In this document: in pieces, positions 4,377-30,775 of the stretch | Layout: every line of letters starts with the position of its first letter | Position numbering within the stretch: the stretch's first letter is position 1 | DNA from: Megasphaera elsdenii DSM 20460 | Lineage (GTDB): Bacteria > Bacillota > Negativicutes > Veillonellales > Megasphaeraceae | NCBI RefSeq assembly: GCF_003010495.1 | Contig: NZ_CP027570.1 | Coordinates: 1,200,001-1,232,000, forward strand | Length of the DNA stretch: 32,000 bases | Reading direction: 5' to 3' | The notes under the pieces: generated by a model | Databases searched by the model: none | What the model saw: the letters and a program-made list of their open reading frames with translations, nothing else | What the model was told of the DNA's origin: nothing | Position numbers and translations under genes: made by a program

Positions 4377-4488
4377 TTTGGATAATCAGACTAATAGCAG
4401 CAAGACTATGAATAGAAATTATGTAGCCGTATTGCCATAGAAGCATATCGAGAAAAGAAACGAAACTGGTTATCCATTCTTGATTTTT

Positions 4489-4538
4489 CAAACTGTGGTT
4501 ACGCAATATTTATTTGTTCAAAAAGTTGTAAACTGCTG
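4489..4538 (+). repeat. 50-bp direct repeat, copy A (46/50 identical to copy B at 15096-15145)
   Basis: caaactgtggttacgcaatatttatttgttcaaaaagttgtaaactgctg versus caaagtgtggttacgcgatacttagttgttcaaaaagttgtaaactgctg, with 4 mismatches. Copy A supplies the -35 of the RT-cassette promoter. Confidence 0.9.
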
Positions 4539-4553
4539 TTGGTATGATATAAT
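4526..4553 (+). promoter_or_regulatory. Sigma-70-type promoter with extended -10 driving the RT leader
   Basis: TTGTAA (4526-4531), 16-nt spacer, then TGaTATAAT (TG 4545-4546, TATAAT 4548-4553). Confidence 0.6.
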
Positions 4554-4870
4554 AATAGTGTCTTAGACAGTTAGGTCTAAGAGCAAGAGATGTTTGTCAA
4601 GTGTTTCTTGACGAATTTATTAATAATATGAAGCTTCATATTGTTAATAAATAATGCTTCTAGTATTATAACCAATACGAAGAAGAACATGAATGTATCG
4701 AATGTGATTGAACATGATACAGTAATGTTAATCGGGAACATTTGAATCACCTCTAGGATTATCATAGCATAATTCGGGATATTTCTTTGGCAATTGCAGT
4801 TGATGCACCAGAGGACAGTATACCCATCGGTTATAAGGATATTGCCACCTTGACCGATGGGTTTTATTAT
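4554..4870 (+). ncRNA. Candidate structured non-coding RNA / 5' leader of the reverse transcriptase
   Basis: ~310 nt lie between the promoter and the RT SD. Structures seen: an 8-bp hairpin at 4561-4568/4575-4582; a 7-bp stem at 4584-4590/4604-4610; a 19-bp-arm palindrome at 4615-4652 centred on AAGCTT; a hairpin at ~4656-4684; and a 9-bp GC stem at 4822-4830/4854-4862 followed by TTTTATT. The exact ends are unknown. Confidence 0.4.
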
Positions 4871-4891
4871 ATATATAGGAGATTATGGTGT

Positions 4892-6298
4892 ATGGATATG
4901 GAATTCGACGCATTTCGAAAAGAAAGTACGGGTAAAGCATATGCTCATTTCGGAACACGATGCACATTGAAAGATGACTGGGTGTGGAAATATGTGACTG
5001 TTCCACAAAATATTGAGACGCATAAATTTTTTCCGTTCATTTCATTTGAAAAAGATTATACGAAATATAATAGTCGTGACAAGAAGCTTAAAGTTAAAAA
5101 TCGATTATTGTGTTATGCGACACATTTGGATCGCTGCATCTATCAGTATTATTCGTTTTTATTAAATAATTATTACAATAAACGAGTTGAAAATAATGGC
5201 ATAGATAAGGTTGCTGTGGCATATCGGACTGATTTACACAAGAGTAATATTCATTTTGCTAAAGAAGTATTTGATTTTATAAAAAATCAAGGTTCGTGCT
5301 ATGTAATTGTTGGTGATTTTAAATCTTTTTTTGACTCTTTGGATCATAGATATTTAAAACAGCGATTGTGTGATTTACTTGGGGTAGATAGGCTTTCAGA
5401 GGATTGGTATGCTGTCTATAAGAGTATTACAAAGTATGCAGAATGTCGAATTGAAGATATTGCTTATTTCTTGGGGAAAAAGTATTCTCCTCAAGAATAT
5501 AAGGATATAAATAAGTGCTTTAAATTAATGGGCACAAAGCAATTTCATAAATTTAAAAAGCAGATATTTCGTAATTTACGTGAAAGTGATGACGATAAGA
5601 CTGCTTTTCATTCAGCTATTGAGAAGAATAAAAAGTCATATGGAATACCACAAGGTTCTTCGATTAGTGCGGTTTTAGCTAATGTTTATATGCTTGACTT
5701 TGACAAAAACATTTATAATTATATTCAATCATATGATGGATTTTATATGAGATATTGTGATGATTTTATTATTGTATTCCCCTCATCCAATAAGGAAGAA
5801 TTTTTGTCAAAATATAAGAAGATTCGAGAATTCATTGATAATATTCCAAGGCTGAAATTGGAAAAGCAGAAAACCCAAATTTATGAGTATCGAAATCAAT
5901 CTATCATTAACCGATTTTCGTATATCTCGGATAGTCCAGAGGAACGACCGAAGCAGCGGATTGATTATTTGGGATTTTCTTTTGATGGTCAAAAAGTTAC
6001 TGTCCGTGATAAGACTTTATCGAAATACTATTATCGAATGTATCGGAAAGTAAAGTCTGCGAAGTATTGGTCACTTCGGAAAAAACGTGTGCAGACTAAA
6101 GGGTTGTATCAACTATACTCTGCTCATGCGAACTGGAGCGATTCACAAAGTCAAAATCCCAAGAAAAAGAACGGAAATTTTTTAACCTATGTACAGCGTG
6201 CAGAAAAAGAGTTTGGAAAAGATGAATTGATAGACCGAGGGACTTCTCGTCACATGGTAAAAATTAAACGTGCCATTGCTAAATGGGGCAAGACCTAA
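4892..6298 (+). CDS. Stand-alone reverse transcriptase (UG/Abi/DRT-like, subtype unassigned)
   Basis: RT motifs are present in order: NRLLCYATHLDRCIYQYY, VAVAYR, VIVGDFKSFFDSLDH, YGIPQGSSISAVLANVYMLDFD, YMRYCDDFIIVF (YCDD codons 5753-5764), and IDYLGFSFDG. AGGAG at 4877-4881 sits 10 nt before ATG 4892. The ORF-track start at 4787 would read through the leader hairpin. There is no maturase/En domain. Confidence 0.88.
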   Translation: MDMEFDAFRKESTGKAYAHFGTRCTLKDDWVWKYVTVPQNIETHKFFPFISFEKDYTKYNSRDKKLKVKNRLLCYATHLDRCIYQYYSFLLNNYYNKRVENNGIDKVAVAYRTDLHKSNIHFAKEVFDFIKNQGSCYVIVGDFKSFFDSLDHRYLKQRLCDLLGVDRLSEDWYAVYKSITKYAECRIEDIAYFLGKKYSPQEYKDINKCFKLMGTKQFHKFKKQIFRNLRESDDDKTAFHSAIEKNKKSYGIPQGSSISAVLANVYMLDFDKNIYNYIQSYDGFYMRYCDDFIIVFPSSNKEEFLSKYKKIREFIDNIPRLKLEKQKTQIYEYRNQSIINRFSYISDSPEERPKQRIDYLGFSFDGQKVTVRDKTLSKYYYRMYRKVKSAKYWSLRKKRVQTKGLYQLYSAHANWSDSQSQNPKKKNGNFLTYVQRAEKEFGKDELIDRGTSRHMVKIKRAIAKWGKT

Positions 6299-6357
6299 GA
6301 TTGATATTATGAGAGGAACATTTTATTTATAGATATTTTATAAGGAAGGTGTAATAA

Positions 6358-6920
6358 ATGATAGCGTCAATAGATGAAAATAAAGTAAACGAATATTTAG
6401 AGGATAATAAAAAGAGAATTGGGGATAGTTTCAGTTCTACACAGCCTGGAACGGTTGAAATCAAAGAAATTATTGGGGGAAAAAACAAAGACTTTCCAGA
6501 TCAAGATGGAGTTATTGATAGTTCTATGACAACGTATGGCAGATATTGCAGTGAAGATAAGATCATAAAAATTAATACCGAAGCTATAGCCCAAAAGCTA
6601 GAAGATATGAGAAATTCATTGTACCATCAATATGAAAAAACTTCCCAAAGTGACAAAAAAATTTATATAAAAGTAATAAAAAATCTTTATATAAATTTAT
6701 TGATTTAATTCTTTTACATGAATATGCACATGCTTATCAAAATCAAATTGAAGGCAAAAAGATGGAAAAAAATAACTATGAGTTAGAAGTAGAAGCAGAT
6801 GAAATAAGCAAAAGAATTTTTATGAAAGATTATAAAGGTACTCCAGATGAAATAACAGAGATGTTGTTGGATACATTCGAAGAACATCATGAGTATTTAC
6901 AGAATGTGATAAAGAAGTAG
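6358..6920 (+). pseudogene. ImmA/IrrE-like Zn-metallopeptidase (HExxH), split by a frameshift at an A7 run
   Basis: Frame 1 (6358-6708) ends shortly after the A7 run at 6655-6661. Frame 3 is open from 6654 to the TAG at 6918-6920 and encodes LLHEYAHAYQNQIEG...ELEVEADEISKRIFM (HExxH plus a downstream E..EAD). An A7-to-A8 change would fuse the two into ~187 aa. AAGGAAGG SD lies before ATG 6358. Confidence 0.55.
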
Positions 6921-7105
6921 AAATTATCATAGCAGATTGATTTACCTATAATTCAAATTGCTATCGTCCATTCACGAAGATATAATATCAGAACTTTTAC
7001 GCACCTCAATGGGTTCCAAAGATGGTTTATATGATGTCTGAACTAAATTTATTTTAAGCAGAGTTGTTACTTAGGGCAAGAGATTTTGGTGAAGAAAACA
7101 AGTGT

Positions 7106-7150
7106 AAAAATAATTCGGTTGCGGTGAATCACTGAGCCGGATTGTTTGTT
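7106..7150 (+). terminator. Hairpin repeat R1 (terminator-like), preceded by a diverged remnant of the wzx-like 3' end
   Basis: aaaaataattcggttgcggtgaatcactgagccggattgtttgtt: stem AATTCGG/CCGGATT followed by a T-rich tail. It is homologous to R2 (16583-16627) and R3 (24049-24094). Confidence 0.6.
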
Positions 7151-7401
7151 AAGAAAATAGCCGAAAATACATAAAATATGGCATAAATATGGATTTAGTG
7201 TTAGAATAAAAACAATAAAGAAGCGTTTGATTGTAATTTCTAGTGATGAGGTCTCTTGTATGTGACAAATTAAATTGTCGTAGGAGATTTACAGAAGTCA
7301 TCCATAGAATCGAAAATTTGAGATAAGATTAGCATCAGTGTACTGCAAATTTAAAGAAAGGAAATGATGATTTTGCTTCTGTAATTGTCATAAAAATTCA
7401 A

Positions 7402-8298
7402 ATGAATCGAAAACCGATACCTGAAAATGTTAAGCGTAGATTATGGGCTGAATCAATGGGACGTTGTATGAATCCAGCTTGTAGAGAAAATTTATTTATA
7501 GATGATAATGATATCATGGAAAAAGCGCATATTAATGCGTATTTTGAAACTGAAGATAATTCATATGAAAATTTAATAATATTATGCCCTAATTGTCATA
7601 AGAAATTTGATAAAACCAATCAGATCAGTATACAAACTGTTAAAGAGTGGAAAAAAATTAGACGAGAGGAGTTAGAAAGGTTTTTTTCTATTAAATTTAA
7701 ATCTTTTGATAGACTAAAAGAAAAAGTAGAACCGATATTGAGGGAAAATTATGATATATACAAGAATTACTATTTAAATGAGAATAAAACTTTGTGGAAG
7801 AAATTCGAACCTAAAATATTGGTGAATAATGAAATTCTAAAATCATTGTTCAAAAACAATTGTAATTTATTTCCAGATTATCCAAATAAAGATTACTCAA
7901 ACTTAGAAGTGATTCAAACCTTCATAACCCATGTCAATGAGTTTAAAAATACTAGAGGCGACGAAGAAAAACAAAGACAGGTGCTTTTTCCTCAAGAAAT
8001 AAATTCTATTTTTGGTATTACGCCAGTAAGTGGCTCTATTATACTTGGCGCGGAATCATTGGAAGAATTAATAAAGGTATTAAGGAGAAAAGGGCGGTTT
8101 GAATCTATCATGTTAGGAATAGATAAGCCATATATATTATTGAAAAGTGGGGGAAAAATATTTGTAGATGATACACCAAGATTACGGCAATTGTATTTTA
8201 ATAATTACTGCTTTAGAAAAACAGGGGTTAGATTACAGAACCTGAATTTTGCTTTGAGCTGTTTAAAATCTAGAAACGTGCCTTTTTTCATATACTAA
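7402..8298 (+). CDS. HNH endonuclease domain protein with an uncharacterised ~220-aa C-terminal domain
   Basis: N-terminal HNH/Zn-finger signature CMNPAC...EKAHINAY...YENLIILCPNCHKKFDK. No clear SD precedes ATG 7402. Confidence 0.7.
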   Translation: MNRKPIPENVKRRLWAESMGRCMNPACRENLFIDDNDIMEKAHINAYFETEDNSYENLIILCPNCHKKFDKTNQISIQTVKEWKKIRREELERFFSIKFKSFDRLKEKVEPILRENYDIYKNYYLNENKTLWKKFEPKILVNNEILKSLFKNNCNLFPDYPNKDYSNLEVIQTFITHVNEFKNTRGDEEKQRQVLFPQEINSIFGITPVSGSIILGAESLEELIKVLRRKGRFESIMLGIDKPYILLKSGGKIFVDDTPRLRQLYFNNYCFRKTGVRLQNLNFALSCLKSRNVPFFIY

Positions 8299-8308
8299 TC
8301 CTAACTCA

Positions 8309-8545
8309 TTGAGAGAAATTGAAGTGAATGGTACTAAGATAATTTTTGTTTATAAATATTGTTTGAGCAAAGCTTTTTTATTTAGAATGAATCCGGAACC
8401 TGGCTGTATAGTTGTAAATTTGCATAACTGGAATGGAAAAGCCTGTATATCTCAAGAAGCATTAAATTTCGCAGCGTCTCTTGACACTAGATTGTTTACA
8501 ATCGAAGACTTTTTTAAATATATCAATGAAATTAGAAAAAAATAA
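8309..8545 (+). CDS. Hypothetical 78-aa protein (TTG start), possibly a detached C-terminus of the HNH gene
   Basis: The ORF starts 10 nt after the HNH stop in another frame and overlaps the next gene by 20 nt. I recognise no motif. Confidence 0.3.
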   Translation: MREIEVNGTKIIFVYKYCLSKAFLFRMNPEPGCIVVNLHNWNGKACISQEALNFAASLDTRLFTIEDFFKYINEIRKK

Positions 8546-8837
8546 TATAATTAATCTGATTAAGCAAAATATGAACCTATTTGGGGCATTTGATGAAGTT
8601 TATGTTTTTGGCTCTATTTTAGACTCAGAGAAGTATTCAAATGATATTGATATTTTGTTATTATATTCCAATTTTTCATATGGGATTCTAGCAAGCATAA
8701 GTAGCATTATTAAATGTATAGAACACTTAACATCTTACCCAGTGGATATAACTGCTTTAAGTTTTGAAGAAGAAAAAGAGGTTGATTTTATAGGTAGATT
8801 AGATAAAAAATATATATGTATAAAGCGATGCCGATAG
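8526..8837 (+). CDS. Minimal nucleotidyltransferase (MNT/Pol-beta fold, MntA-like)
   Basis: GS...DxD signature VYVFGSILDSEKYSNDIDILLLY. ATG 8526 (MKLEKNN) is a more plausible start than the ORF-track start at 8481. There is no HEPN partner downstream; the IS remnant begins at 8921. Confidence 0.65.
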   Translation: MKLEKNNIINLIKQNMNLFGAFDEVYVFGSILDSEKYSNDIDILLLYSNFSYGILASISSIIKCIEHLTSYPVDITALSFEEEKEVDFIGRLDKKYICIKRCR

Positions 8838-8920
8838 TTTATGTGTAAATGTCAATGAGAAAGTGAGCCAGGTGATTACGAATTTTTGAGTCACAATGAT
8901 TATGGAGAATTAACTTTGAT

Positions 8921-9728
8921 GGTAGTGTCAAGATTCTTTCGCAAATTCATTTCATCCGCCAGTAAATATCGTAATCAGATATATGGATTTTCCTCGTCAT
9001 TTGGCTGCTCAATTTTCATCTTGAATAGATGCTCCATGTCCATATAGCGTTTTGAGCCCCATTCCGAGGCGGCAACATGACGAAGTCTGGCACAGACGAG
9101 CATCAAAGCACTGTTGCCGTCAGGAAAGGCACCAATGGCCCGTGTACGGCGGCGTATCTCGCGATTCACCCGTTCTGTTAGGTTATTTGTGCCTTTCATG
9201 CCTTCTGCGGCTTCGAGAATCTCACGGAACCCGTCTTTATTGGAGACCTTTGTGCCCCAAAGCAATTCGGTGATATCTTCGACACGGCGCACGGATACGC
9301 CGGCCAGGTACATCTCAATAAGGGCTTCCTCGACAGAGCATTCACGGCGTTTATAGCGCTCGATGATGGCCGTCTCAAACTGGATGCCCTTGAGCTTCGG
9401 CACGCGTAATCTGACTTCGCCGGAAGTCGTGCCAAAAATCCGCTCGTAATGACCGGAACGGTAGCCCTTACGGTCTCCCGTTCGCTCATACTTGCCAGCG
9501 CGGACGAGTTCATCCGCCTCGTGGTCGAGCAGGGCGTTCAGTGTTTCCTCTACACTGTTGCGTACAAGATCCTTTAAATTATTCTTTATAAGATCCTCAT
9601 TAAGTTGTATAATATTACCAGATATGGTCTATTGCCTCCTTACGAATTTTGTGTGGTAACTTAATTGTACTAGCGGCAATAGACTATGTCTATTTTTATG
9701 AAATTGAATTTGCGAAATATATTTTACC
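8921..9728 (-). mobile_element. Internally deleted IS256-family element (~0.8 kb) with imperfect terminal inverted repeats
   Basis: Left end ggtagtgtcaagattctttcgcaaattcatttcat (8921-8955) pairs with the reverse complement of the right end, ggtaaaatatatttcgcaaattcaatttcat (9698-9728). GC is visibly higher than in the flanks. No target-site duplication was seen. Confidence 0.75.
8975..9628 (-). pseudogene. IS256-family (Mutator-type) transposase remnant lacking the DDE core and a start codon
   Basis: A single open frame runs from 9628 down to 8975. It encodes the N-terminal part (...RSGHYERIFGTTSGEVRLRVPKLKGIQFETAIIERYKRRE...GVSVRRVEDITELLWGTKVS) joined directly to the C-terminal part (NNLTERVNREIRRRTRAIGAFPDGNSALMLVCARLRHV). 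AGGAGG at 9635-9640 is followed by ATA rather than ATG at 9625. Confidence 0.75.
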
Positions 9729-9734
9729 TTATCG

Positions 9735-10124
9735 GATGTTATCCGTGGTTCTGATCTGGTTGTTTCTGCAGTTACGAGGGCAACTGAAAATTTTGCATCA
9801 GATGACTGCTATAAACCTGGAGTGACGGTTATCCCTGTTTGCACATTAGGATTTCAGAACTGTGATTTGTTCTTTGATTAGGTATTTACAGATGAAATTG
9901 AACAGATCAGAGGATTCAAATATTTTGATAAGTTTAAGTCTGTTCATAATGTGACAGATGTTTTATTGGGAAGAGTACCAGGACGTTTAAATGATAAGCA
10001 GCGTATCCTGGTTTATAATTATGGCGTAGGCATTCATGATCTGTATTTTGCGGAACAGTTTTATCATGCAATACAAGGTACAGACATTGAATATAATTTT
10101 TGTAAAGAAAAGTATTTTATCTGA
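9735..10124 (+). pseudogene. Ornithine cyclodeaminase/mu-crystallin family gene, 3' fragment with an in-frame stop
   Basis: The translation begins DVIRGSDLVVSAVTRATENFASDDCYKPGVTVIPV... immediately after the IS right end. There is an in-frame TAG at 9879-9881, and the frame ends at TGA 10122-10124. Confidence 0.5.
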
Positions 10125-10161
10125 TCATGGATACTGCTGAAGTACACAGGGAGGAATGCAT

Positions 10162-11255
10162 ATGCGTATCTGCATAGTCGGCGGTGGTAATATCGGTACT
10201 TTATTAGTGGGTGAAGCAGCCGCGGATGGTCATGACGTAACTATGTATACATCCAGACCGGACAGCTGGCATAATCATATTGTAGTAAAAGATATTCAGG
10301 GACTCATCATCGCAGAGGGGGATATCTACACAATTACAGATGATATGTCTTTGGCTTTAAAAAATCAGGACTATATCTGTGTGACACTTCCATCTATTGC
10401 TCAGAAGTCTTTTGCAGATAAGGCTGCGGCTTATGTAAAGCCCGGCACTCGATTTGTGATGATTCCTGGTTATGGCGGCACAGAATTCCTTATGCAATCG
10501 GTGCTGAAGCAAGGAGCAGTCCTTATTGGCTTTGAACGGGTACAGGCTATTGCCCGGTTGATTCGTTATGGACAGAGTGTTTGTATGAGGGGCCGTAAAA
10601 ACGAAATTCAACTAGCATCCTATCCCCAGTGCCCTGAAGATGAAATAAAAACTATTGCAAATGATATGGAAGTTCTTTTTCATCTGCCAGTAAAAATCAT
10701 GCCTAATTACCTGAATATAACATTTACGCCGTCCAATCCGGTATTGCATACCTCCCGTTTGTATTCAATGTTTAAAGACTATCAGGAGGGCGTGTATTAT
10801 CCGAGTCATCTTCCTTTCTATGATGGCTGGACTGATTTTTCTTCTAAAGTTCTCTTTCGATTGGATGATGAAGTTCAGCTTCTCTGCTCTACGCTTAATC
10901 ATTTAGACCTTGATGGTGTCAATCTTTAAGGTTGCATTATGAAAGTCCGACAATATCAGCGATGACCTATAAATTAACCCATATAGATTCATTCCATGGA
11001 ATTATGTCTCCCATGAAAGAAACCGATAAAGGATGGATTCCGGATTTTAATAATCGTTATTTCAGCTGTGATTTTAATTATGGCTTAGAAATTCTTTATC
11101 AGTTTGCCCAAATCTGTCATCTAAAAGTACCTGCGATGGACACTGTAATGCAGTGGTATCGTAAGGTAACTCATAGTAATAAGACGATAGTAGATATTGA
11201 AGAATATGGAATTCATTCTATAGATGATATTTATATTAAGTATCTGAGTAAATAG
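10162..11255 (+). pseudogene. NAD(P) opine (octopine/nopaline-type) dehydrogenase family gene, frameshifted
   Basis: N-terminus MRICIVGGGNIGTLLVGE (Rossmann fold). GGGAGG at 10149-10154 favours ATG 10162. The frame changes at ~10914-10932 (TAA 10927-10929) and continues as ...HYESPT...GWIPDFNNRYFSCDFNYGLEIL in frame 3 to 11255. Confidence 0.55.
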
Positions 11256-11423
11256 CTTGTAAGCGATAAATAATCGATGGACTTTTTAACATCTGGAAAT
11301 ATGTGAAAATAACTCTAGTCAATTTAAATGATTTATACTGGTGTTAATGAATATGAATATTATCTTGTCACCCAATAACCTATTCATCACATGAGGCTAT
11401 ACAGATGTACTCCAATAGTTGGT

Positions 11424-11475
11424 AACGTTTCACTTATTCTAGAAACGTTGACAAGAGTGTAGAAAATGATATATT
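11424..11475 (+). promoter_or_regulatory. Promoter with an overlapping 8-bp inverted repeat (operator-like) upstream of the Panacea pair
   Basis: AACGTTTC (11424-11431) and GAAACGTT (11442-11449) form an inverted repeat. TTGACA (11448-11453), 16-nt spacer, then TGaTATATT (TATATT 11470-11475). Confidence 0.45.
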
Positions 11476-11527
11476 AATTGTAAAATGTAGACAAAATAGC
11501 TATTTTTTGAAAGGGGAGAAACAGCGT

Positions 11528-12001
11528 ATGTATACGTGGAAAGGTGTGGCGGACTGGATTTTACAAAATATTGATAATGTAACTGATAAAAAATTACAGA
11601 AGTTGATGTATTTTGCATATGCGTGGTATTTAGTATTTTTCAATGAATCCGCAAATGAAATAGAAAATCGTTTGTTTGATGAACACTTTGAAGCATGGGT
11701 TCATGGGCCTGTTTTACCTGCCTTATACCAAGATGTAAAAGAATTTCATAGTGATGATATTCCCAAAAATTATTTTGAAAAGTATAGAGAACGTTTTTCG
11801 ACAGATACATTGAATTTATTTGAACAAATAAAAAAAGTGTATGGTGCATATAATGGAAATCAGTTAGAAAGCATTGTCCATCAAGAAGATCCGTGGATTC
11901 ATGCACGTAAAGGTTGTAGCAGTTATGAAATATGTAAAAATATCATTACGGATGGGGAAATTTTTAGCTATTATATAAAAAGAATTGTTGATGAATCATG
12001 A
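11528..12001 (+). CDS. Panacea-domain (DUF4065, SocA/PanA-like) antitoxin
   Basis: KLQKLMYFAYAWYLVFFNE ... FEAWVHGPVLPALYQ matches the DUF4065 pattern. The AAGGGGAG SD favours ATG 11528. The stop overlaps the next start (ATGA at 11998-12001). Confidence 0.75.
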   Translation: MYTWKGVADWILQNIDNVTDKKLQKLMYFAYAWYLVFFNESANEIENRLFDEHFEAWVHGPVLPALYQDVKEFHSDDIPKNYFEKYRERFSTDTLNLFEQIKKVYGAYNGNQLESIVHQEDPWIHARKGCSSYEICKNIITDGEIFSYYIKRIVDES

Positions 12002-12570
12002 CAAAAAGAAAAAATGTATTGAATCAGACTACGCCTATTAACGAAGTAAAAAATCCAATCAAGCCTTATGAAGATAAAGAGAAAAGAATTGTTTTTGATA
12101 TTTCTTTTAAAGGTCTTTTCTATTTTGTTGATTGTAAGGGCTTTACTAATAGACTTAGAAATGAAAAAGAATTTAGCGAGAAATTCTCTCAATTCATCAC
12201 ACTTATTCACAAACTGGAAAAGAAAGAGTTTGGGCAAGAATTAATTCAGGAGCCAGGAATGAGGCACTGTCATCTCATAAAGCAAGAAGAAAAGAGAGAA
12301 TTAGTTCACAAATGTTTTGTGGAATCACTGAAAGAATGCGTGAGTCAACCAGATCAGCGAGAAGATTACTGGGCGCAGATTACCGAAGGGGAAAAATTAT
12401 ATCAGATTGGATTTGAAAAAGAATGGAGATTCATTGGGATATACAAGGAAAATAGGAATTTATTTTACATTTTATTGTTCGATTGGCATCATTCTCTCTT
12501 TCCTGATGAACGGAGAAATACTATTAATCTTAAACTGATGAAATATAGTTTATTTGGTAGAAATAAATGA
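11998..12570 (+). CDS. Candidate PanT-type toxin, 190 aa, family unassigned
   Basis: Translationally coupled (ATGA overlap) to the Panacea gene. The C-terminal stretch LYQIGFEKEWRFIGIYKENRNLFYILLFDWHHSLFP is loosely reminiscent of RelE/ParE-type folds, which is weak evidence. Confidence 0.45.
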   Translation: MTKRKNVLNQTTPINEVKNPIKPYEDKEKRIVFDISFKGLFYFVDCKGFTNRLRNEKEFSEKFSQFITLIHKLEKKEFGQELIQEPGMRHCHLIKQEEKRELVHKCFVESLKECVSQPDQREDYWAQITEGEKLYQIGFEKEWRFIGIYKENRNLFYILLFDWHHSLFPDERRNTINLKLMKYSLFGRNK

Positions 12571-12672
12571 TACTTAGAATTAAACAAATATTGTAGTAAA
12601 GTAATATGGATTTATATTAATCCGAAAGCTGACGGTAGCAAAGAATTCATATTATAAATTAGGAGTGGTGAT

Positions 12673-13893
12673 ATGTTATTAGAGTATACATGTTCTAACT
12701 ATAAATCCATAAAAGATAGGGTACTTTTTTCGTTGCTGGCAGATAAAGATATTTCTTCTCATACCCCAAATACTGTGCTTTATGACAATAAAAAAATTTT
12801 AAAATCTGCCGTAATTTATGGCGCTAATGGCTCTGGAAAAACTAATTTTTTAAATTCAATGAAATTCATGAAATTATTAGTGGCTACTAGCATTCGCAAA
12901 CAGCCTGGCGAAGGCATTCCTCAACTTTCGCATAAACTTTCTGCATCTAATGTTCCGACGGTGTTTACTGTACAGTTCATTCGTCATGGAATTCGATATT
13001 CGTATGGTTTTTCTGTTTTGCATAATATGATTGATGGGGAGTATTTGTACTACTTTCCCAAAAAGCGACTTGTAAAAATTTTTGAACGTGATGGAATGAA
13101 TATTATTCCTGGAAATAGATATAAAAATTCGTTTGATGTGAGCCAGAGCATATTAAAAGAAAATAGGTTGTTTTTATCTTGTGCTGCTAATTACACAAAT
13201 ATTAAAGAAATAGAAGAGGCGTTTTTGTTTTTTGTGGAAGATGTAGTTATTTATGATAATAATGAAAATGATTGGACTGGCTCTTCTATTCATTTGATGA
13301 GAGAAAATAAAGTAATTAAACATAAGTTTATATCATTATTACAGGAATTTGGTACAGGCATACAAAATATTAGCAGTAAGACTGAAAAAGTAAAAATTGC
13401 TACGGAACCTTTACCAGATGAAATAAAAAAGTTTTTGCCTAAAGTAGCAAATCGTATTACGATTAAAGTTGATTATGGTAAATTTCAAACTGACTTGATG
13501 TCGGAAGAATCAGATGGTGTTCAAAAATTATTTGAGTTATTGTGTCCTATTTTAGATATTTTAGCTAAAGACAAAGTCTTAATTTGTGATGAATTAGAGA
13601 ATAGTTTACATGAAATTTTAGTGGCCCATATTATAAAACTATTTCATGATAATGAATCTAAAGCGCAACTTATATTTTCAACGCATGATACAAGTCTGTT
13701 AAGTAATAATATTTTTCGCAGAGATCAGATTTGGTTTACTCAACTTACTCAAGACAGAGCAACAGATTTGTATTCTCTGATAGAAATTAAAAATATAGAT
13801 AATTTAGAGAACCTTGAAAAAGGGTATATTAGTGGTAAATACGGAGCGATTCCGTTCTTGAATATCTCATCTATTAGTAAATTGGAAAAGTAA
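12673..13893 (+). CDS. AAA_21/AAA_15-type (ABC-like) ATPase
   Basis: Walker A VIYGANGSGKTNF, Walker B/D-loop VLICDELENSLHEIL and H-loop QLIFSTHDTSLL. AGGAGTGG SD lies before ATG 12673. Confidence 0.8.
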   Translation: MLLEYTCSNYKSIKDRVLFSLLADKDISSHTPNTVLYDNKKILKSAVIYGANGSGKTNFLNSMKFMKLLVATSIRKQPGEGIPQLSHKLSASNVPTVFTVQFIRHGIRYSYGFSVLHNMIDGEYLYYFPKKRLVKIFERDGMNIIPGNRYKNSFDVSQSILKENRLFLSCAANYTNIKEIEEAFLFFVEDVVIYDNNENDWTGSSIHLMRENKVIKHKFISLLQEFGTGIQNISSKTEKVKIATEPLPDEIKKFLPKVANRITIKVDYGKFQTDLMSEESDGVQKLFELLCPILDILAKDKVLICDELENSLHEILVAHIIKLFHDNESKAQLIFSTHDTSLLSNNIFRRDQIWFTQLTQDRATDLYSLIEIKNIDNLENLEKGYISGKYGAIPFLNISSISKLEK

Positions 13894-13910
13894 AGGGGAG
13901 GGAGCGATAA

Positions 13911-14651
13911 ATGTTGTTAGAACCAAATTATAAGCTTACTCCTAGGAATAAAAATGTTAGAGAAAAATGTCCATCTAAAACTGTGATGAAATTTTCTCTA
14001 AAAGAAATAAAACAACATTTTGATGAGAGTTTAGCAATGCTTCGCAATCAAACATCTATTGCGCATGGTTTTTATGAAAATCGAAATGTAGAGGAAGCAA
14101 AATATATATGGCGCACACAAATTGTATTATTAGAAAGTGCTTATGATTTTTATCTACATGAAATTACTAAGTATGGGTTATGCCGGATATACGAAAAACA
14201 ATGGGATGAAACTCCAAAATATAAAAACATAAATATTAACATGGAAACATTGTCGGAAGCTTTAATTAGTAATGGAAGTTTGGACTGGTTTTTAAAATTC
14301 ACAAATGACCATTATAGTATCAAAACATTAACATCTTATCAGTCTTTTCGTGATCAATGTAATTTGTTGGGGATTGATTATAGAGAAATTGCAGATGAAG
14401 TGTTCTATGATAGGAATTCTCGCAAATCAACAGAAGAAAAATTAGAAAATGTCATAACTGAGCTTTTTAAACGAAGAAATCGAATTGCGCATCAATATGA
14501 TCGTGAATATGCTGATGCTGAACCTCAAAATATTGATGAAAAAACAGTAGAAGATTTTTTGCAAAGAATCTCTGAAATTGTGGATTCTATTTATCGAGCA
14601 GTACTTAGAAAAGATGGAATTTTTAATGATTTTACTTGCAATGATAAATAA
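13911..14651 (+). CDS. HEPN-domain protein (RNxIAH motif), putative RNase partner of the ATPase
   Basis: C-terminal LFKRRNRIAHQYD fits the HEPN Rx4-6H motif. The AGGGGAGGGA SD begins directly after the ATPase stop (13891-13893). Confidence 0.55.
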   Translation: MLLEPNYKLTPRNKNVREKCPSKTVMKFSLKEIKQHFDESLAMLRNQTSIAHGFYENRNVEEAKYIWRTQIVLLESAYDFYLHEITKYGLCRIYEKQWDETPKYKNININMETLSEALISNGSLDWFLKFTNDHYSIKTLTSYQSFRDQCNLLGIDYREIADEVFYDRNSRKSTEEKLENVITELFKRRNRIAHQYDREYADAEPQNIDEKTVEDFLQRISEIVDSIYRAVLRKDGIFNDFTCNDK

Positions 14652-14740
14652 AAAAGAAACTGGTGTCTATATCTTTGGGAGCGAGTGTCAAACGTCCGCT
14701 AACACATAAAGCATATTTTTTAGAAAATGAATATATACAA

Positions 14741-14757
14741 CAGCACTTTACAACTTT
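14741..14757 (-). repeat. 17-nt core repeat, copy C (inverted relative to A/B)
   Basis: cagcactttacaacttt is identical to copy D and is the reverse complement of the A/B core aaagttgtaaactgctg, with 1 mismatch. Confidence 0.6.
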
Positions 14758-15095
14758 TACGCCATTTTGGAAGTTGACGAGTCCAGTTTACATAAAGCAT
14801 GAACTAAGTCCGTTGAATTTTTTACGGGTTAGGCCTTAGCGACCAAAGTGCAAAAAATATTTCATGCTGTATTTGCCAATTTATATGACTTCGCAGTTCT
14901 TGCATATTGGCGTTTTTTGTATTTCACAAAAGACTCATTTAGATACGGAAGCATTTTCAGGTTATTGTAATTCCGGTGAAGAAAACGAAGAGAGGGGAAT
15001 GCTTGCAAAAACAGCTGGGCCATGATTGGCCAGGTCAACAGGAATTGCGTTGGCCGTGTCGCTGTAGAAAAATAGTGAGCAGTTTCATTATACTT

Positions 15096-15145
15096 CAAAG
15101 TGTGGTTACGCGATACTTAGTTGTTCAAAAAGTTGTAAACTGCTG
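15096..15145 (+). repeat. 50-bp direct repeat, copy B, immediately 5' of the Wzx-like gene
   Basis: See copy A. It ends 13 nt before ATG 15159. Confidence 0.9.
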
Positions 15146-15158
15146 ATTAGGTGAGTAT

Positions 15159-16583
15159 ATGCAGATTAATACACAAAAGAAAGATATTATATGGAACTAC
15201 TTGGGAATCTTCTTCTCTTTGGGTTCTCAAGTTATATGGCTGCCTGTCCTGATTCATTACTTACCACCTGATATTTTAGGTTTATGGTACGTATTCGTCA
15301 GTATTGGTGGTATGGTTGAACTTCTTGATAGTGGCTTTACGCCAACTTTGAGCCATTGCATGACTTATGCGTGGAGTGGAGCCATGGATTTGAAGAAACA
15401 GGGTGTCGTCTTTTCCGGTGAACGGAGTGGGCCGAATTATGCTTTGGTTTATGGGATTTTGAGTACTTGCCGAGTCTTATATTTTGGCATTGCCTGTGTA
15501 GCTACCTTAGTTATGGTCGGTGCTGGTACGTTGTACGTGCAGCGCATCGCCTCGGCCTATTTATCTTGGCAAGTTTATGCTACTTGGATGCTTTATATAG
15601 CATCAACCTTTATTAATCTTTATATAGGCTATTATGCCGTCGTCCTCGTCGGTATCGGCGATATTTTTCATAAAAACCGGGCACAGATTTTATCGAAAGG
15701 TGCTTTTTTGATATTAGGAACACTCGGCCTTGTTTGTGGCTTTGGGATTCTCAGCCTTGGCGTAGCTTATTTTGCCAGCGGTTTTGTTTTACGCTTTTTG
15801 TGCAAGCATTATCTCATCAAGGAGCATAAGTTTGATGAATTATTTCGAAAATATCGCCATCAGACAGATTATTCCAAGCGCCATGTCTTGGCTATGATGT
15901 GGCCCAATGCCTGGCGGGATGGATTAGTTACGGTTACGGCTTATCTGACAGGGCAGGCTACGGTACTGATGAGCAGCGGCTTTCTGACTCTGTATGAAAC
16001 GGGGATTTACTCTTTTTCCATGCAAGTCGTCAATGCCTTGATTAGCATTGCTTCAGGTATGTTCAGTGCCTATGTTCCGGCAATCCAATCGGCCTATGTA
16101 TCCCGCAACCGGAAAGTCATGAAAGATTTATACGCGAAGTCCATGGCCTGTGCCTTTCACCTCAGTTTCTGGGGCATCATCGTTTTTGCAGCGATTGGCA
16201 TTCCCATCGTACAACTCCTGCGCCATGACTTCGTCATTGAACGACCGGCCTTCCTGCTGTTGGCACTGTCAATTTATCTCTTGAATCGCCATCGAAGTTC
16301 TGCCTGCTTCATCAGTACCATGAATAAGCTGCCATATACCTTCAGCTTCATCTTCTTCGGCGTCATCAGTATCAGTGCCACCTATATCGGACTAGCCTAC
16401 TTCCATTTAGGATTATGGGGCCTCATCCTTATTCCCTTAGCGGTCCAGTCCATCTACAATAACTGGAAATGGAACCAAGTCGTCAATCGCTATCTGCATA
16501 CCACAGAAATCAGATTGATGAGACAGGGGACGGCTGATCTTATGCGGATCGTAGGGAATAAAATATTTAAAACGAAATCATAA
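15159..16583 (+). CDS. Wzx-like polysaccharide/O-antigen flippase (MOP superfamily membrane protein)
   Basis: 474-aa protein with ~12-14 TM segments and an N-terminus typical of RfbX/Wzx-type exporters (IIWNYLGIFFSLGSQVIWLPVLIHYLPPDILGLWYVF). It is visibly GC-richer than the flanking cassettes. AGGTGAG SD is present. Confidence 0.6.
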   Translation: MQINTQKKDIIWNYLGIFFSLGSQVIWLPVLIHYLPPDILGLWYVFVSIGGMVELLDSGFTPTLSHCMTYAWSGAMDLKKQGVVFSGERSGPNYALVYGILSTCRVLYFGIACVATLVMVGAGTLYVQRIASAYLSWQVYATWMLYIASTFINLYIGYYAVVLVGIGDIFHKNRAQILSKGAFLILGTLGLVCGFGILSLGVAYFASGFVLRFLCKHYLIKEHKFDELFRKYRHQTDYSKRHVLAMMWPNAWRDGLVTVTAYLTGQATVLMSSGFLTLYETGIYSFSMQVVNALISIASGMFSAYVPAIQSAYVSRNRKVMKDLYAKSMACAFHLSFWGIIVFAAIGIPIVQLLRHDFVIERPAFLLLALSIYLLNRHRSSACFISTMNKLPYTFSFIFFGVISISATYIGLAYFHLGLWGLILIPLAVQSIYNNWKWNQVVNRYLHTTEIRLMRQGTADLMRIVGNKIFKTKS

Positions 16584-16627
16584 AAATAATCCGGCTGCGG
16601 TGAAATCACTGGGCCGGATTGTTTTTT
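16583..16627 (+). terminator. Hairpin repeat R2, rho-independent terminator of the Wzx-like gene
   Basis: aaaaataatccggctgcggtgaaatcactgggccggattgtttttt: stem AATCCGG/CCGGATT plus a T6 tail directly after the stop at 16581-16583. Confidence 0.7.
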
Positions 16628-16646: not shown

Positions 16647-16675
16647 TTGACACGATATTTATTTTGCCATAAACT
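16647..16675 (+). promoter_or_regulatory. Sigma-70-type promoter for the DUF4917 cassette
   Basis: TTGACA (16647-16652), 17-nt spacer, TAAACT (16670-16675). Confidence 0.45.
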
Positions 16676-17845: not shown

Positions 17846-17862
17846 CAGCACTTTACAACTTT
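17846..17862 (-). repeat. 17-nt core repeat, copy D
   Basis: cagcactttacaacttt. It overlaps a + strand promoter-like element. Confidence 0.6.
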
Positions 17863-17879
17863 ATAAGGTATGATATTTT
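17852..17879 (+). promoter_or_regulatory. Possible promoter ~365 nt upstream of the large NTPase gene
   Basis: TTTACA (17852-17857), 16-nt spacer, TGaTATTTT (17871-17879). It shares the ggtatgatat block with the RT promoter. Confidence 0.35.
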
Positions 17880-18243
17880 TGCAAAATAAAGATGTAAACC
17901 TAGCTAAACAGAGTGAGATATTGAACAATCTGTGGGACTAGGAAGCTGCTGAGCTGACCAATGCTTCTAAAAGATGAGTGTACGGAACAGCGAAAGGGGT
18001 ACCGTTCCAACCATTACCGCAGAAATCTGCATAGCATCTACCATAATGTAGAAAGTGGGTTGATACTTGCTTGTACTAGGCGGTGTCATGTCGTAATTAC
18101 TCAGTGAGTCATAAATAAATATATGACCATGAAGCATCTGTACGGATACGATACCGCGGCCATCCTCTACTAATTTTACAAGACTTTAAATATTAGTAAT
18201 TTAGAGATTACTATGATAATATTTCACAGCTAGGAGAGATAAT

Positions 18244-22214: not shown

Positions 22215-23729
22215 ATGGACATCAAGGATTTTCAAGGGATTGAAGCAAGTTTTTTAGATTACAAAATTTTTTTAGAGGCAGAAAAACCTAAAAGTTGGTT
22301 AAAATCAGTTTCGGCATTTGCAAATACGAAGGGCGGACATATTTTATTTGGAGTTACAGATAAAACGCACGAAGCCATCGGTTTAGATGATGTGCAGAAG
22401 GCAGCTAGCAAAATCGCAGAAATAATTTCAGTTCGAATTAGTCCGAAGGTAAATTATACGATAGATACTTTTCCAGGTACTCGTGAAGGGAAGTTCTGTC
22501 TTGACTTATCTATTTTTCCAGGGCCTCATTATCCTTATTATTACGTGCATGAACAGACTCGGGAATGTTATGTTCGAAGAGGCGATCGCTCTGAACCAGC
22601 GACTACCTTAGAAATTAATACGCTTATTTTGAAAGGTATGAATCAAACGTATGATGCATTGCCGACTTCTTATAAACTAGATGACATTAGCTTTACTTTG
22701 TTAGGTGCAACTTTCAAACAGGAAACTGGAGAAAGTTTTAATTTGCCACAGGATGCAGTTTCCTTGGGGCTGACAACTCCCAGCGGAGAAGTTACCAATG
22801 CGGGATTGTTGCTTTGTGATCAAGGTGTTTTACGACATTCCCGTGTCGTCTGTACGCATTGGAAAGGTAAAGAAAAGGGAGCGATTGATGGAGATGCATT
22901 AGATGATCAGGAGTTTTTTGGAACTAGCCTTATTATGCTTTTGAGTAATACAGAAGCGTTTATACGAAATAATTCAAAAAATCCGTGGACAATTCGGGGA
23001 ATGCGACGAGAAGAGAATAGTGATTATCCTTTTAAGGCAGTTCGCGAAGTTTTGGTAAATGCCTTGATTCATAGAGATTATCAAAATATTGGTGCTGAAG
23101 TACATGTTGACATGTACGATGATCGTATGGAAATATCTTCTCCGGGAGGTATGATGAATGGTAGCCGTATTCAAGATTTGGATTTGAGTATGGTGCCATC
23201 TATGAGAAGAAATGAAATTATTTCAGATATTTTTGGAAGATTGCATTATATGGATCGTCGAGGCAGTGGGATACGGCGGATTATAAATTCATATGCTCAT
23301 TTCAAAATTAAACCGAATTTTTATTCTAATGAGTATTTTTTTCTTGTTTCTCTGCCCAATAGAGGAGTACCATCAAAAATTAAACATACTACGGAAGAAA
23401 CGCAACTTACGAGTGGAGAAACGCAACTTACAAGTGGAGAAACGCAACTTACGAGTGGAGAAATGCAACTTACAGGAGAAAAAATGACGCTTGAAATGTG
23501 GAAGACTAATATACGGCAAAAAACTGGAAATAAGTTTCAACCAAGAACTGTGGATAAACTTGCTAAATTAATGGCGATTTATGAAGATAAGTATCCCTTC
23601 AATCGACAAATTGTAGCGAATCGATTTGAAATAAGCGAAAATGCTGCATCTCGGATACTAAAAAGAGCAATTGAGTGTGGTATTGTTAGGAAAGAGAAAA
23701 AAGGCGTTTACTATTTTCAATTTCCTTAA
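22215..23729 (+). CDS. AlbA_2 (Schlafen-like) + HATPase_c_4 (RecG-C-like) + C-terminal wHTH protein
   Basis: N-terminal KSWLKSVSAFANTKGGHILFGV (AlbA_2), central AVREVLVNALIHRDY...MEISSPGG (HATPase_c_4), and C-terminal ISENAASRILKRAIECGIVRKEKKGVYYF (wHTH). GGAGGG SD is present. Confidence 0.75.
   Translation: MDIKDFQGIEASFLDYKIFLEAEKPKSWLKSVSAFANTKGGHILFGVTDKTHEAIGLDDVQKAASKIAEIISVRISPKVNYTIDTFPGTREGKFCLDLSIFPGPHYPYYYVHEQTRECYVRRGDRSEPATTLEINTLILKGMNQTYDALPTSYKLDDISFTLLGATFKQETGESFNLPQDAVSLGLTTPSGEVTNAGLLLCDQGVLRHSRVVCTHWKGKEKGAIDGDALDDQEFFGTSLIMLLSNTEAFIRNNSKNPWTIRGMRREENSDYPFKAVREVLVNALIHRDYQNIGAEVHVDMYDDRMEISSPGGMMNGSRIQDLDLSMVPSMRRNEIISDIFGRLHYMDRRGSGIRRIINSYAHFKIKPNFYSNEYFFLVSLPNRGVPSKIKHTTEETQLTSGETQLTSGETQLTSGEMQLTGEKMTLEMWKTNIRQKTGNKFQPRTVDKLAKLMAIYEDKYPFNRQIVANRFEISENAASRILKRAIECGIVRKEKKGVYYFQFP
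23397..23478 (+). repeat. In-frame 21-bp tandem repeat (~3.8 units) in the linker of the AlbA_2 gene
   Basis: The gaaacgcaacttacgagtgga units at 23397, 23418 and 23439 plus a partial fourth encode ETQLTSG repeats. Confidence 0.9.
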
Positions 23730-23801
23730 AAAGTTAAATCCGCATATCGGTGATAATATATTAATGAAATTAACAAAAAGTTTGAGGCGGAGGTCAGTTT
23801 T

Positions 23802-24107
23802 GTGGGGCGTATTGTGAAAAATAATCTTGTCATATTGCTGGCGGCTATGGGGGCGTTGGTCTCGATGGTCATTGTACCGTCGTCGATGGGGTATGTGGAG
23901 TATCTCAATGGGCCTGTGCTGGGAATTTTGTTTTGCCTTATGGTTGTCATTGGCGGGTTTCGTGAAAGCGGCGTCTTTTCGGTGTTATTGTCCCAGCTCC
24001 TATTGCGGCTGGGAACGTTTCGTCAGTTGGCGATGGTGCTGGTCTTCATAAACAATCCGGTTGCGGTGATTTCACCGCAGCCGGATTGTTTTGTTAATAA
24101 AAAATAA
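23802..24107 (+). pseudogene. Duplicated 5' fragment of the ArsB/NhaD-type permease gene, truncated at hairpin R3
   Basis: 23764-24046 aligns base for base, with a few mismatches, with 27616-27898. Homology stops at ggtctt (24041-24046), where the R3 hairpin begins. Confidence 0.75.
24049..24094 (+). terminator. Hairpin repeat R3 (near-perfect ~20-bp stem) at the left junction of the IetAS-like cassette
   Basis: In ataaacaatccggttgcggtgatttcaccgcagccggattgttttg, aaacaatccggttgcggtga pairs with tcaccgcagccggattgttt (two G-T pairs), followed by a T-rich tail. Confidence 0.65.
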
Positions 24108-27510: not shown

Positions 27511-27544
27511 AAAATTCAAAACAGGCTGGCACTTTCCCTTCAAG

Positions 27545-27615
27545 CGACAAAGTGTAGCAACTCGATTTGAAATAAGCGAAAATGCTGCATCCCGGATACT
27601 GAAAAGAGCAATTGA
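27545..27615 (+). pseudogene. 71-bp fragment of the AlbA_2-gene 3' end at the right junction of the IetAS-like cassette
   Basis: cgacaaagtgtagcaactcgatttgaaataagcgaaaatgctgcatcccggatactgaaaagagcaattga aligns with 23605-23674. The next 89 bp of the left copy (23675-23763) are missing here. Confidence 0.8.
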
Positions 27616-27653
27616 ATGAACTTAACGAAGAATTTGAGGCGGAGGTCAGTTTT

Positions 27654-28865: not shown

Positions 28866-28971
28866 GGCGGGCCGCCAGCCACAGCTGTCCGTTTTGGCAG
28901 CCGTCCTGCGCCTTCCGGTGGTCGGCACTTGACGGGCCAAAAAGGCTTTCAGGACGGCCCCTACAGGGCCC
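28866..28971 (+). repeat. GC-rich REP-like intergenic repeat, copy 1 (copy 2 at 30486-30592)
   Basis: ggcgggccgcc...ctgtccgtt..g...ccgtcctgc.cct.c.g.tggtcgg.ac.tg.cggg....aaaggct.t..g.cg.cccctac aligns over ~105 bp at roughly three-quarters identity. Confidence 0.7.
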
Positions 28972-30390: not shown

Positions 30391-30775
30391 AATCAGATTC
30401 AGATGCGGCATCGCTGCGATAAACTCAAGATTATGTTATGACCCGGCATCGTCTGTCATAAATTTCGGCTGTACACAGGATTCGCGGCGGGCCGCCCGTC
30501 GCTGCTGTCCGTTCTGTTAACCGTCCTGCACCTCCCGATGGTCGGTACCTGTCGGGGTAGAAAGGCTCTGGGCGTCCCCTACGCACAAGGCCGTTGGCCG
30601 TGTATTTTTTATGGCCTGCGGACCACGCTTTTTTTCATCGCCTGACTGCGATTCCGTAGGGGCCGTCCCAACGGGCGGCCCGCGTGAATCCTGTGCATAT
30701 CCGGAATTTATGACGGACGGCGCATGGTCGTAATACAATCATGAGTCTGTTGCGGCGGGCCGCCGCATCTGATTC
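30391..30775. repeat. ~385-bp imperfect palindrome (MITE-like) with ~105-bp inverted arms around a REP-like core
   Basis: The left arm 30391-30498 is the reverse complement of the right arm 30672-30775 at roughly 80% by eye. For example, gtcataaatttcggctgtacacaggattcgcggcgggccgcccg pairs with cgggcggcccgcgtgaatcctgtgcatatccggaatttatgac. Confidence 0.7.

Follow-up and report, generated by a model that had tools for sequence, protein, structure and literature searches.

The stretch of DNA analysed here (the window) comprises 32,000 nucleotides (nt) of Megasphaera elsdenii DSM 20460 (contig NZ_CP027570.1, positions 1,200,001 to 1,232,000). By exact protein matches it also corresponds to about 934,708-966,707 of record HE576794.1 (assembly GCA_000283495.2). 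Its left end holds polysaccharide genes, namely those for a repeat-unit polymerase, a MurJ-like flippase and a UDP-glucose dehydrogenase. To the right of these lies a dense run of defence genes, which includes a DRT2 reverse transcriptase (RT), an HNH endonuclease with a nucleotidyltransferase, a SocA/Panacea pair, AbiL (AAA_21 plus HEPN), PDC-S21 (DUF4917), Tmn (YobI ATPase), an AlbA_2/HATPase_c_4 protein, and an AAA ATPase with an S8 peptidase. Amid them stands a WZX-like gene (wzx), whose assignment in a preliminary description of the window proved correct (Table 1). The window is a mosaic phage-defence island adjoining a polysaccharide gene cluster. Four short direct repeats, which follow one another in the interleaved order A, R1, B, R2, bracket the RT cassette and wzx, and had been taken as the flanks of a locus duplicated in tandem. 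The pattern is ordinary mobile-element scarring in a phage-defence island, left by repeats of two unrelated kinds. Right termini of an insertion sequence (IS) of the IS701 family (A and B) and reused wzx terminator hairpins (R1 and R2) are, with high probability, jointly the best explanation of the repeats.

The repeats themselves, and their interleaved order, are as first described. A (4489-4538) and B (15096-15145) are identical at 46 of 50 positions, and their similarity in fact reaches 62 nt (4477-4538 versus 15084-15145; 87 % identity, E ~1e-15), with 0 matches in 100 shuffles. R1 and R2 are likewise a true repeat pair (one gap, E 4e-10) and true paralogues. Chance was rejected as the source of either likeness on the basis of these E-values and shuffles. 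The positions given for the flanks of wzx are also borne out, B lying 13 nt upstream of its ATG and R2 beginning at its stop codon. Further copies had been missed, however: a third R copy, R3 (24047-24092), and two inverted copies of the terminal 17-mer of A/B (14741-14757 and 17846-17862). When the flanks were compared, the DNA outside the A/B and R1/R2 repeats was found to be unrelated.

Table 1. Features of the window, in positions counted from its first nucleotide
Feature	Positions	Strand	Basis or remarks
Solo right-end IS701-family remnant, holds repeat A	4426-4538	-	Terminus at 4538; aligns to L039 element positions 1285-1348 and 1401-1463
Predicted hybrid sigma-70 promoter	4526-4553	+	-35 TTGTAA in IS end, 16-nt spacer, extended -10 TGaTATAAT in cassette; scan 10/12, TG motif
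Non-coding leader, presumed DRT2 non-coding RNA, 338 nt	4554-4891	+	Without sense open reading frame
DRT2 (UG2) defence reverse transcriptase, 468 amino acids	4892-6298	+	PADLOC Drt2, NCBIfam Drt2, Pfam RVT_1
Small HExxH protein gene	6358-6920	+	Weak SprT-like match; comparison with L018
R1 hairpin, wzx-terminator family, between DRT2 and HNH cassettes	7105-7150	+	47 nt, 89 % to R2; predicted fold -19.4 kcal/mol, z -5.3
HNH endonuclease gene and small nucleotidyltransferase gene	7402-8837	+	Profile matches
IS256-family remnant, internally deleted	8921-9733	-	Pfam Transposase_mut; boundaries from L017, L016, L150, L200; left boundary uncertain by ~10 nt
Conserved backbone: ornithine cyclodeaminase-like (OCD) remnant, frameshifted octopine dehydrogenase gene, SocA/Panacea pair, AbiL (AAA_21 + HEPN)	9734-14651	+	In all haplotypes L001-L010
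Internally deleted IS701-family copy (405 bp), both terminal inverted repeats, holds repeat B	14741-15145	-	IS positions 1-221, 1201-1306, 1394-1463
WZX-like, O-unit flippase-like gene	15159-16583	+	NCBIfam NF041503 (WZX_like), 364 bits, cut-off 300
R2, wzx terminator hairpin, founding type of the R family	16581-16627	+	Predicted fold -26.3 kcal/mol
Isolated IS701 left terminal 17-mer	17846-17862	-	Alignment; abuts degraded IS256-like remnant (~17863-18140)
R3, perfect-palindrome R member, between truncated CitMHS fragment and AAA-ATPase/S8-peptidase cassette	24047-24092	+	Predicted fold -34.0 kcal/mol

The nature of A and B becomes apparent from their distribution. In a scan of one genome per species, their terminal 18-mer was found in at least 120 genome stretches, mostly of Negativicutes, Lachnospiraceae and Ligilactobacillus; as a rule the hits lay at the end of a contig or formed inverted pairs spaced by about 1463 bp. 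Sixty of these loci have homology to a single element, five of them as full-length copies. The complete element is 1463 bp long and has 17-nt terminal inverted repeats (CAGCASTTTACAACTTT), which stand at this distance in L028, L039, L079, L097 and L102 (L numbers denote comparison loci). The copy in L039 (Megasphaera sp. AM44-1BH) encodes an IS701-family transposase (NF049999, 391 bits against a cut-off of 170; Pfam DDE_5). The right end of the complete element reads ...GTGTGGTTACGCGATATTTATTTGTTCAAAAAGTTGTAAACTGCTG, which is the A/B sequence, and 42 of 42 independent right ends stop at CTGCTG, beyond which unrelated AT-rich DNA follows. The A/B homology therefore ends at CTGCTG, as had been observed, because the last base of the element lies there. 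The plasmid collection gave no match to the element. IS256 was rejected as the source of the 17-mer, since the adjacent open reading frame (ORF) of 183 amino acids in L006 belongs to an IS701-type element and IS256 ends differ. The complete copies of L039 and of Acidaminococcus hominis (L028:2366-3828) are 99.5 % identical, which implies recent horizontal transfer.

Neither copy in the window is complete. What the window retains of the transposase is a minus-strand ORF of 78 amino acids within the B copy, in which residues 33-68 are fused to residues 392-409. The B copy has its 224/1201 deletion junction in common with the copies in L016 and L182, and the L016 copy, a complete deletion derivative of 487 bp, lies at the same DRT2 junction as A. 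When compared with a consensus of 17 ends, A has 6 private changes and B has 2 others, which together account for all 8 differences between them, and the two have zero derived substitutions in common. The derivative is found upstream of wzx, of DRT2 and of a KAP NTPase.

The derivative is like a miniature inverted-repeat transposable element (MITE) in that it retains both inverted repeats, is without a transposase and has one internal deletion at several loci. It might thus be supposed that A and B are copies of a MITE that is actively mobilised and has been favoured by selection as a portable outward promoter of defence and surface genes. The presence of the derivative at three loci, the -35-like TTGTAA that lies 8 nt from the tip of the right end, and the frequent orientation of right ends towards downstream genes in this island all accord with such a role, which is nevertheless unlikely. 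Target-site duplications are absent at these copies, and the -35 in the IS end at B would place the transcription start site at or after the ATG of wzx, so that it probably does not serve wzx. Selection of IS701 right ends as outward promoters was rejected, as the nearest ORF at 37 right-end junctions was co-oriented in 19 and opposed in 14, that is, without orientation bias. A promoter role for all four 17-mer copies was rejected as well, their spacing to -10-like boxes being inconsistent at 14741, 17846 and B.

A composite repeat, made up of an IS701 left end (1-83), ~210 nt of GC-rich sequence, a wzx tail of 115 nt and an R hairpin, is present at L070:1771-2218, L070:7399-7783 and L189:5011-5441, and hence within and between Megasphaera species. 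Just 3' of R2, at 16647-16675, a promoter-like site (TTGACA-17-TAAACT) has the 12-mer CGATATTTATTT in common with the IS701 right end, and in L176 the sequence downstream of R2 passes straight into an IS701 terminus at the equivalent position.

The preliminary description held that wzx and the RT cassette are alternative fillings of one locus, with the same flanks, and that a tandem duplication of this locus trapped positions 7151-15095 between the two fillings. For A and B to be flanks of a wzx slot, B should have counterparts at other wzx genes, and these are lacking: none of 11 other full-length metagenomic wzx alleles (77-96 % identity) has an IS end upstream. In these alleles the homology to the window starts at the ribosome-binding site, ~13 nt before the ATG, and beyond it at least five contexts are found, e.g. 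GT2 or GT-D glycosyltransferases or a KAP NTPase. B is therefore no flank of wzx but an insertion that is peculiar to the lineage of M. elsdenii. In the window and in loci L153-L200, the wzx gene is a sharply bounded conserved module that extends from the ribosome-binding site to the terminator and occurs in at least five upstream and at least eight downstream contexts. Its neighbours are mostly defence genes; in some loci a glycosyltransferase lies directly upstream.

The R repeats are of a different kind. R1, R2 and R3 all consist of an A-tract, a stem of 13-19 bp and a T-tract, each stem lying between an A-run and a T-run, and their predicted folds are stable, with z values from -5.3 to -9.0. 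They are paralogous copies of a hairpin that is predicted to act as the bidirectional terminator of wzx. R1 has orthologues in L016, L186 and L198, while R3 with the AAA-S8 cassette occurs in L178 and L201 next to a different upstream module. A metagenome scan yielded ~45 genuine R copies, all in island contexts and most with a wzx 3' end before them, and at least 24 metagenomic R copies are preceded by the wzx tail of R2. Among 48 R copies, 6 upstream and 12 downstream sequence classes were distinguished; the wzx tail pairs with 8 of the downstream classes, and the AAA-S8 cassette with at least two upstream classes. Many copies carry truncated wzx tails of 115-290 nt, whose start points are specific to each cassette type, and in other strains such tails with R come after AbiH, SIR2 or other genes. 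Up to four units of tail and R are found per contig, with Pycsar-like and other cassettes between them; L189 and L070 hold such arrays, whose copies are separated by Pycsar-like, Abi and other cassettes. The R hairpins are thus copies of the predicted wzx terminator, multiplied at the cassette borders of this island, and across strains of Megasphaera they stand exactly where cassettes meet and reassort. A genome-wide, REP-like element was considered and rejected: in ~780 kb of unrelated Negativicutes loci, R was found only in L070, which is the syntenic island of another Megasphaera species.

The reassortment of partners around R raises the alternative that R is a dedicated recombination site, i.e. 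that a core of ~50 nt (TCATAAAAAT-stem-loop-GTTT) is acted upon by a putative recombinase or hairpin-targeting transposase, giving an integron-like array. Such a site would account for the tight limits of conservation about the hairpin that several of the upstream and downstream classes show, for the exchange of partners on both sides, for contigs that contain as many as four R copies separated by different defence cassettes, and for a chimaera joined within R in L156, where a wzx tail of 287 nt with R continues into DNA that matches the sequence downstream of R1 at 86 % identity. Yet the ORFs of the window and those adjacent to R in other loci yielded neither an integrase nor a recombinase nor a transposase of the Y1/IS110 type, and attC-type core motifs were not seen on inspection. 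Moreover, 115-290 nt of wzx tail, starting at points specific to each cassette, are usually part of what has been duplicated, which is better explained by homologous or illegitimate recombination than by a fixed crossover site. The site is accordingly considered improbable. The same low probability is given to the broader proposal that the terminator hairpin of wzx, either alone or with a short wzx tail, is the functional junction of an integrase-less cassette array in Megasphaera, in which DRT2, HNH-nucleotidyltransferase, AbiH, SIR2, Pycsar-like and AAA-S8 cassettes are reshuffled by recombination targeted to the ~50-nt hairpin; if true, this array would resemble an integron without IntI.

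A resemblance to the wzx 3' end had been noted in the 15-45 nt upstream of R1. Shuffle tests that covered 45-100 nt upstream of R1 and R2 do not bear it out, as local alignment scored 7 where shuffled sequences averaged 6.8-8.1 (P = 0.51-0.93). With an nhmmer profile built from 29 unique wzx tails, only the genuine tail (16467-16586, E 2.5e-41) was recovered, and the region of R1 was without a hit at E <= 10. By way of intermediate types there is a weak chain of likeness, between the sequence upstream of R1 and an L070 copy (a 13-nt match) and between the upstream sequence of another R type and the wzx end (P ~0.02 each). The notion of a 'ghost' wzx flank is apt for the island in general, where truncated wzx tails with the hairpin occur at the AbiH, SIR2 and Pycsar-like cassettes of other strains, but is not borne out at the RT cassette.

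Comparison of M. elsdenii haplotypes bears directly on the supposed trapping. The octopine dehydrogenase gene, SocA, AbiL, the deleted IS701 copy, wzx, R2, PDC-S21 and Tmn form a constant segment, and what lies to its left varies: in one type of haplotype DRT2, the HNH-nucleotidyltransferase genes and the IS256 remnant; in a second an intact lic-like operon with OCD and an intact octopine dehydrogenase gene; and in a third an AAA_13/acyltransferase set with IS copies. With the segment from octopine dehydrogenase to Tmn constant and its left side variable, 7151-15095 was not trapped as a unit; the genes from octopine dehydrogenase to wzx are present in every haplotype, including those without the RT. 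Nor were strains found that have a single filling at the same site within common outer flanks, the RT-less strains differing to the left of the IS256 remnant and not at A or R1. The IS256 remnant is the divider between the strain-variable left part and the conserved backbone.

It had further been proposed that recombination between A and B, or between R1 and R2, would delete ~10 kb of defence genes. Among 24 + 24 contigs, none carried a deletion haplotype of this kind. In these contigs wzx is always preceded by HEPN, and the ORF of 142 amino acids is never joined directly to wzx, the RT cassette being next to it wherever the contig extends. The longest identical run is 25 nt in A/B and 12 nt in R1/R2, and recombination between A and B would at present be inefficient because its longest run is only 25 nt.

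A few observations do speak for a duplicated slot: the interleaved order is real, truncated wzx tails with R follow AbiH, SIR2 and other defence genes in other strains, and the A-type copy (L016) and the B-type copy (window) have the same IS deletion junction. They are outweighed by the occurrence of A/B as an IS terminus in dozens of unrelated contexts, by the absence of A/B sequence from the 11 wzx alleles, by the lack of a detectable wzx tail upstream of R1, by the unrelated flanks beyond the repeats, and by the presence of 10.1-15.1 kb as conserved backbone in strains without the RT cassette. The joining in tandem of two alternative fillings is highly improbable, and for the left flank it is already refuted.

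The interpretation in terms of IS termini and reused terminators does have some observations to its disadvantage. No target-site duplication was found at the deleted IS copy upstream of wzx or at the L016 copy upstream of DRT2, and the present flanks of the deleted copies would therefore not stem from simple transposition; the missing duplications agree with recombination at IS copies in the past. Among four full copies, two have target duplications of 8 bp (TAAAAGAA and TTATACAT) and the others have none, while duplications in the IS701 family are typically, though not universally, of 4 bp (PMC2266710). Since the window copy, L016 and L182 have a deletion junction in common, A and B are more closely related than would be expected of two full-length IS insertions that occurred independently. 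As to the hairpins, a simple terminator scan did not list them, and a wzx tail upstream of R1 may have been wholly eroded, which is a candidate and not a demonstrated history.

Between them, the copies and remnants of IS701 and IS256 and the R hairpins mark all borders of modules in the island, and the modules reassort among strains. Upstream of the DRT2 system, A is the remnant of a further copy of the deletion derivative to which B belongs. It may be proposed that recombination between copies of the repeats (IS derivatives, wzx tail with R), rather than simple insertion, produced the flanks now present. R itself would have been multiplied by recombination and may serve as a terminator or insulator between cassettes. 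Both R and the IS copies would probably provide short portable homology for the gain and loss of cassettes.

The DRT2 assignment rests on matches of the RT to PADLOC PDLC03757 (Drt2; 471.8 bits, E 7.6e-142) and to NCBIfam NF041746 (Drt2), in the latter case with 365.8 bits, just below the cut-off of 390. In DRT2 systems a non-coding RNA (ncRNA) template is copied to concatemeric cDNA that encodes a stop-less ORF, neo, in the opposite sense (PMC11100668; PMC12039810), and in KpnDRT2 one upstream promoter is common to the ncRNA and the RT (PMC11100668). The AT-rich leader of the window contains a 38-nt palindrome at 4615-4652 and had no Rfam match. An antisense stop-free frame of 303 nt runs through it (minus strand, 4580-4882) and is a candidate neo proto-gene template; the leader and this frame are, as predicted features, consistent with the DRT2 mechanism.

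The preliminary description had pointed out that the RT promoter is a hybrid, with its -35 from the repeat and its -10 from the cassette, and this holds at the level of the sequence. The predicted promoter is the only strong promoter-like site upstream of the ncRNA-RT unit, and the junction of IS end and cassette is identical in the window, L016 and L198, the three haplotypes that hold the DRT2 cassette (in L016 behind rml genes). It is therefore a reasonable prediction that the IS end supplies the -35 of the DRT2 ncRNA-RT promoter; the extended -10 might also suffice without it. In L016 the cassette ends 33 nt beyond R1, against IS256. The small HExxH gene downstream of the RT is split in the window into frames of 116 and 52 amino acids by a single-base difference from metagenomic copies in an A-run at 6655 (A7 versus A8), and is intact, with 187 amino acids, in L018.

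Other genes of the window also show decay. An extra T at 8283 causes a frameshift in the HNH gene (298 + 78 amino acids), which encodes 380 amino acids in metagenomic copies. Within 8921-11255, the OCD gene is truncated by the IS256-family remnant, of which a complete transposase of 407 amino acids exists in L013 (NF033543, 345 bits), and the octopine dehydrogenase gene is frameshifted (255 + 107 amino acids). In L003, L004, L007 and L010 the latter is kept intact, with 364 amino acids, behind the lic-like (NTP-transferase/choline kinase/permease) operon. On both sides of the R3-AAA ATPase-S8 peptidase cassette (23594-24046 and 27535-27898) lie two duplicated pieces with 92-94 % identity, one from the 3' end of the AlbA_2/HATPase_c_4 gene and the other comprising the initial 284 nt of the gene for the CitMHS transporter, and L178 has a single copy of these pieces. 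The duplication looks like the result of a single-crossover (Campbell-type) insertion. GC-rich repeats of ~80-110 nt are found amid AT-rich DNA at 28866-28947 and 30486-30567 and as inverted arms at 30412-30486 and 30683-30757; related sequence interrupts a wzx tail in L195. They are candidates for a small MITE or a structured RNA. The Rfam search of the whole window gave zero family matches.

These results correct a tempting misreading, in that the interleaved repeats around the defence genes of the window are IS scars and a reused terminator and are no sign of a duplicated slot. In Megasphaera, a genus of importance in rumen and gut, the WZX-like gene and its terminator anchor a defence hotspot of high variability. 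Of the findings, only the repeated use of the wzx tail and terminator throughout the island merits more attention, the remainder being mostly ordinary; cassettes that carry copies of the anchor's 3' tail could help the automatic location of cassette borders in related genomes. The DRT2 system, whose only predicted promoter is half IS-derived, would be a case of an IS remnant wired into the expression of an immune gene.

Hybrid promoters in which an IS end provides the -35 and the target the -10 are known for IS1, IS2, IS256 and elements of the IS26/IS257 type. The site in the window agrees with these in the -35-like hexamer near the IS tip, the spacer of 16 nt, the perfect extended -10 and its occurrence in three haplotypes, and differs in that it is predicted to serve a DRT2 ncRNA-RT unit instead of a resistance gene. 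The element itself resembles the IS701 family in its DDE transposase, which matches the IS701-family hidden Markov model (HMM), in its length, which is inside the family range of 1400-1550 bp (PMC2266710), and in its left terminal inverted repeat, which fits the YACT motif of the family at positions 4-7 (PMC2266710). It is present in many copies, at which assemblies break, and truncated and deleted copies litter the island. Unlike the family, its visible target duplications are of 8 bp and not 4 bp, and the window copies are without any.

The window RT resembles known DRT2 (UG2) systems (PMC11100668, PMC12039810) in its matches to Drt2 HMMs, its long non-coding leader, its single predicted promoter and its antisense stop-free frame. 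It differs in scoring just below the NCBIfam cut-off, in being followed by a conserved small HExxH gene that is not part of described DRT2 systems, and in its Negativicutes host. As in other defence hotspots, the Megasphaera island has conserved anchors (wzx and VanZ/HD genes), at least eight downstream and at least five upstream contexts, and AbiL, PDC-S21, Tmn, DRT2, Pycsar-like, SIR2 and AbiH cassettes; unlike in these, no integrase was found, and the cassettes frequently carry a truncated 3' tail of the anchor gene with its terminator. The R hairpins recall integron attC arrays, being imperfect palindromes at the borders of cassettes that reassort. In contrast to such arrays, the island is without an IntI-type integrase (among the ORFs examined) and without R''/R' core motifs, and R, the predicted terminator of a gene resident there, has mostly been duplicated along with coding sequence.

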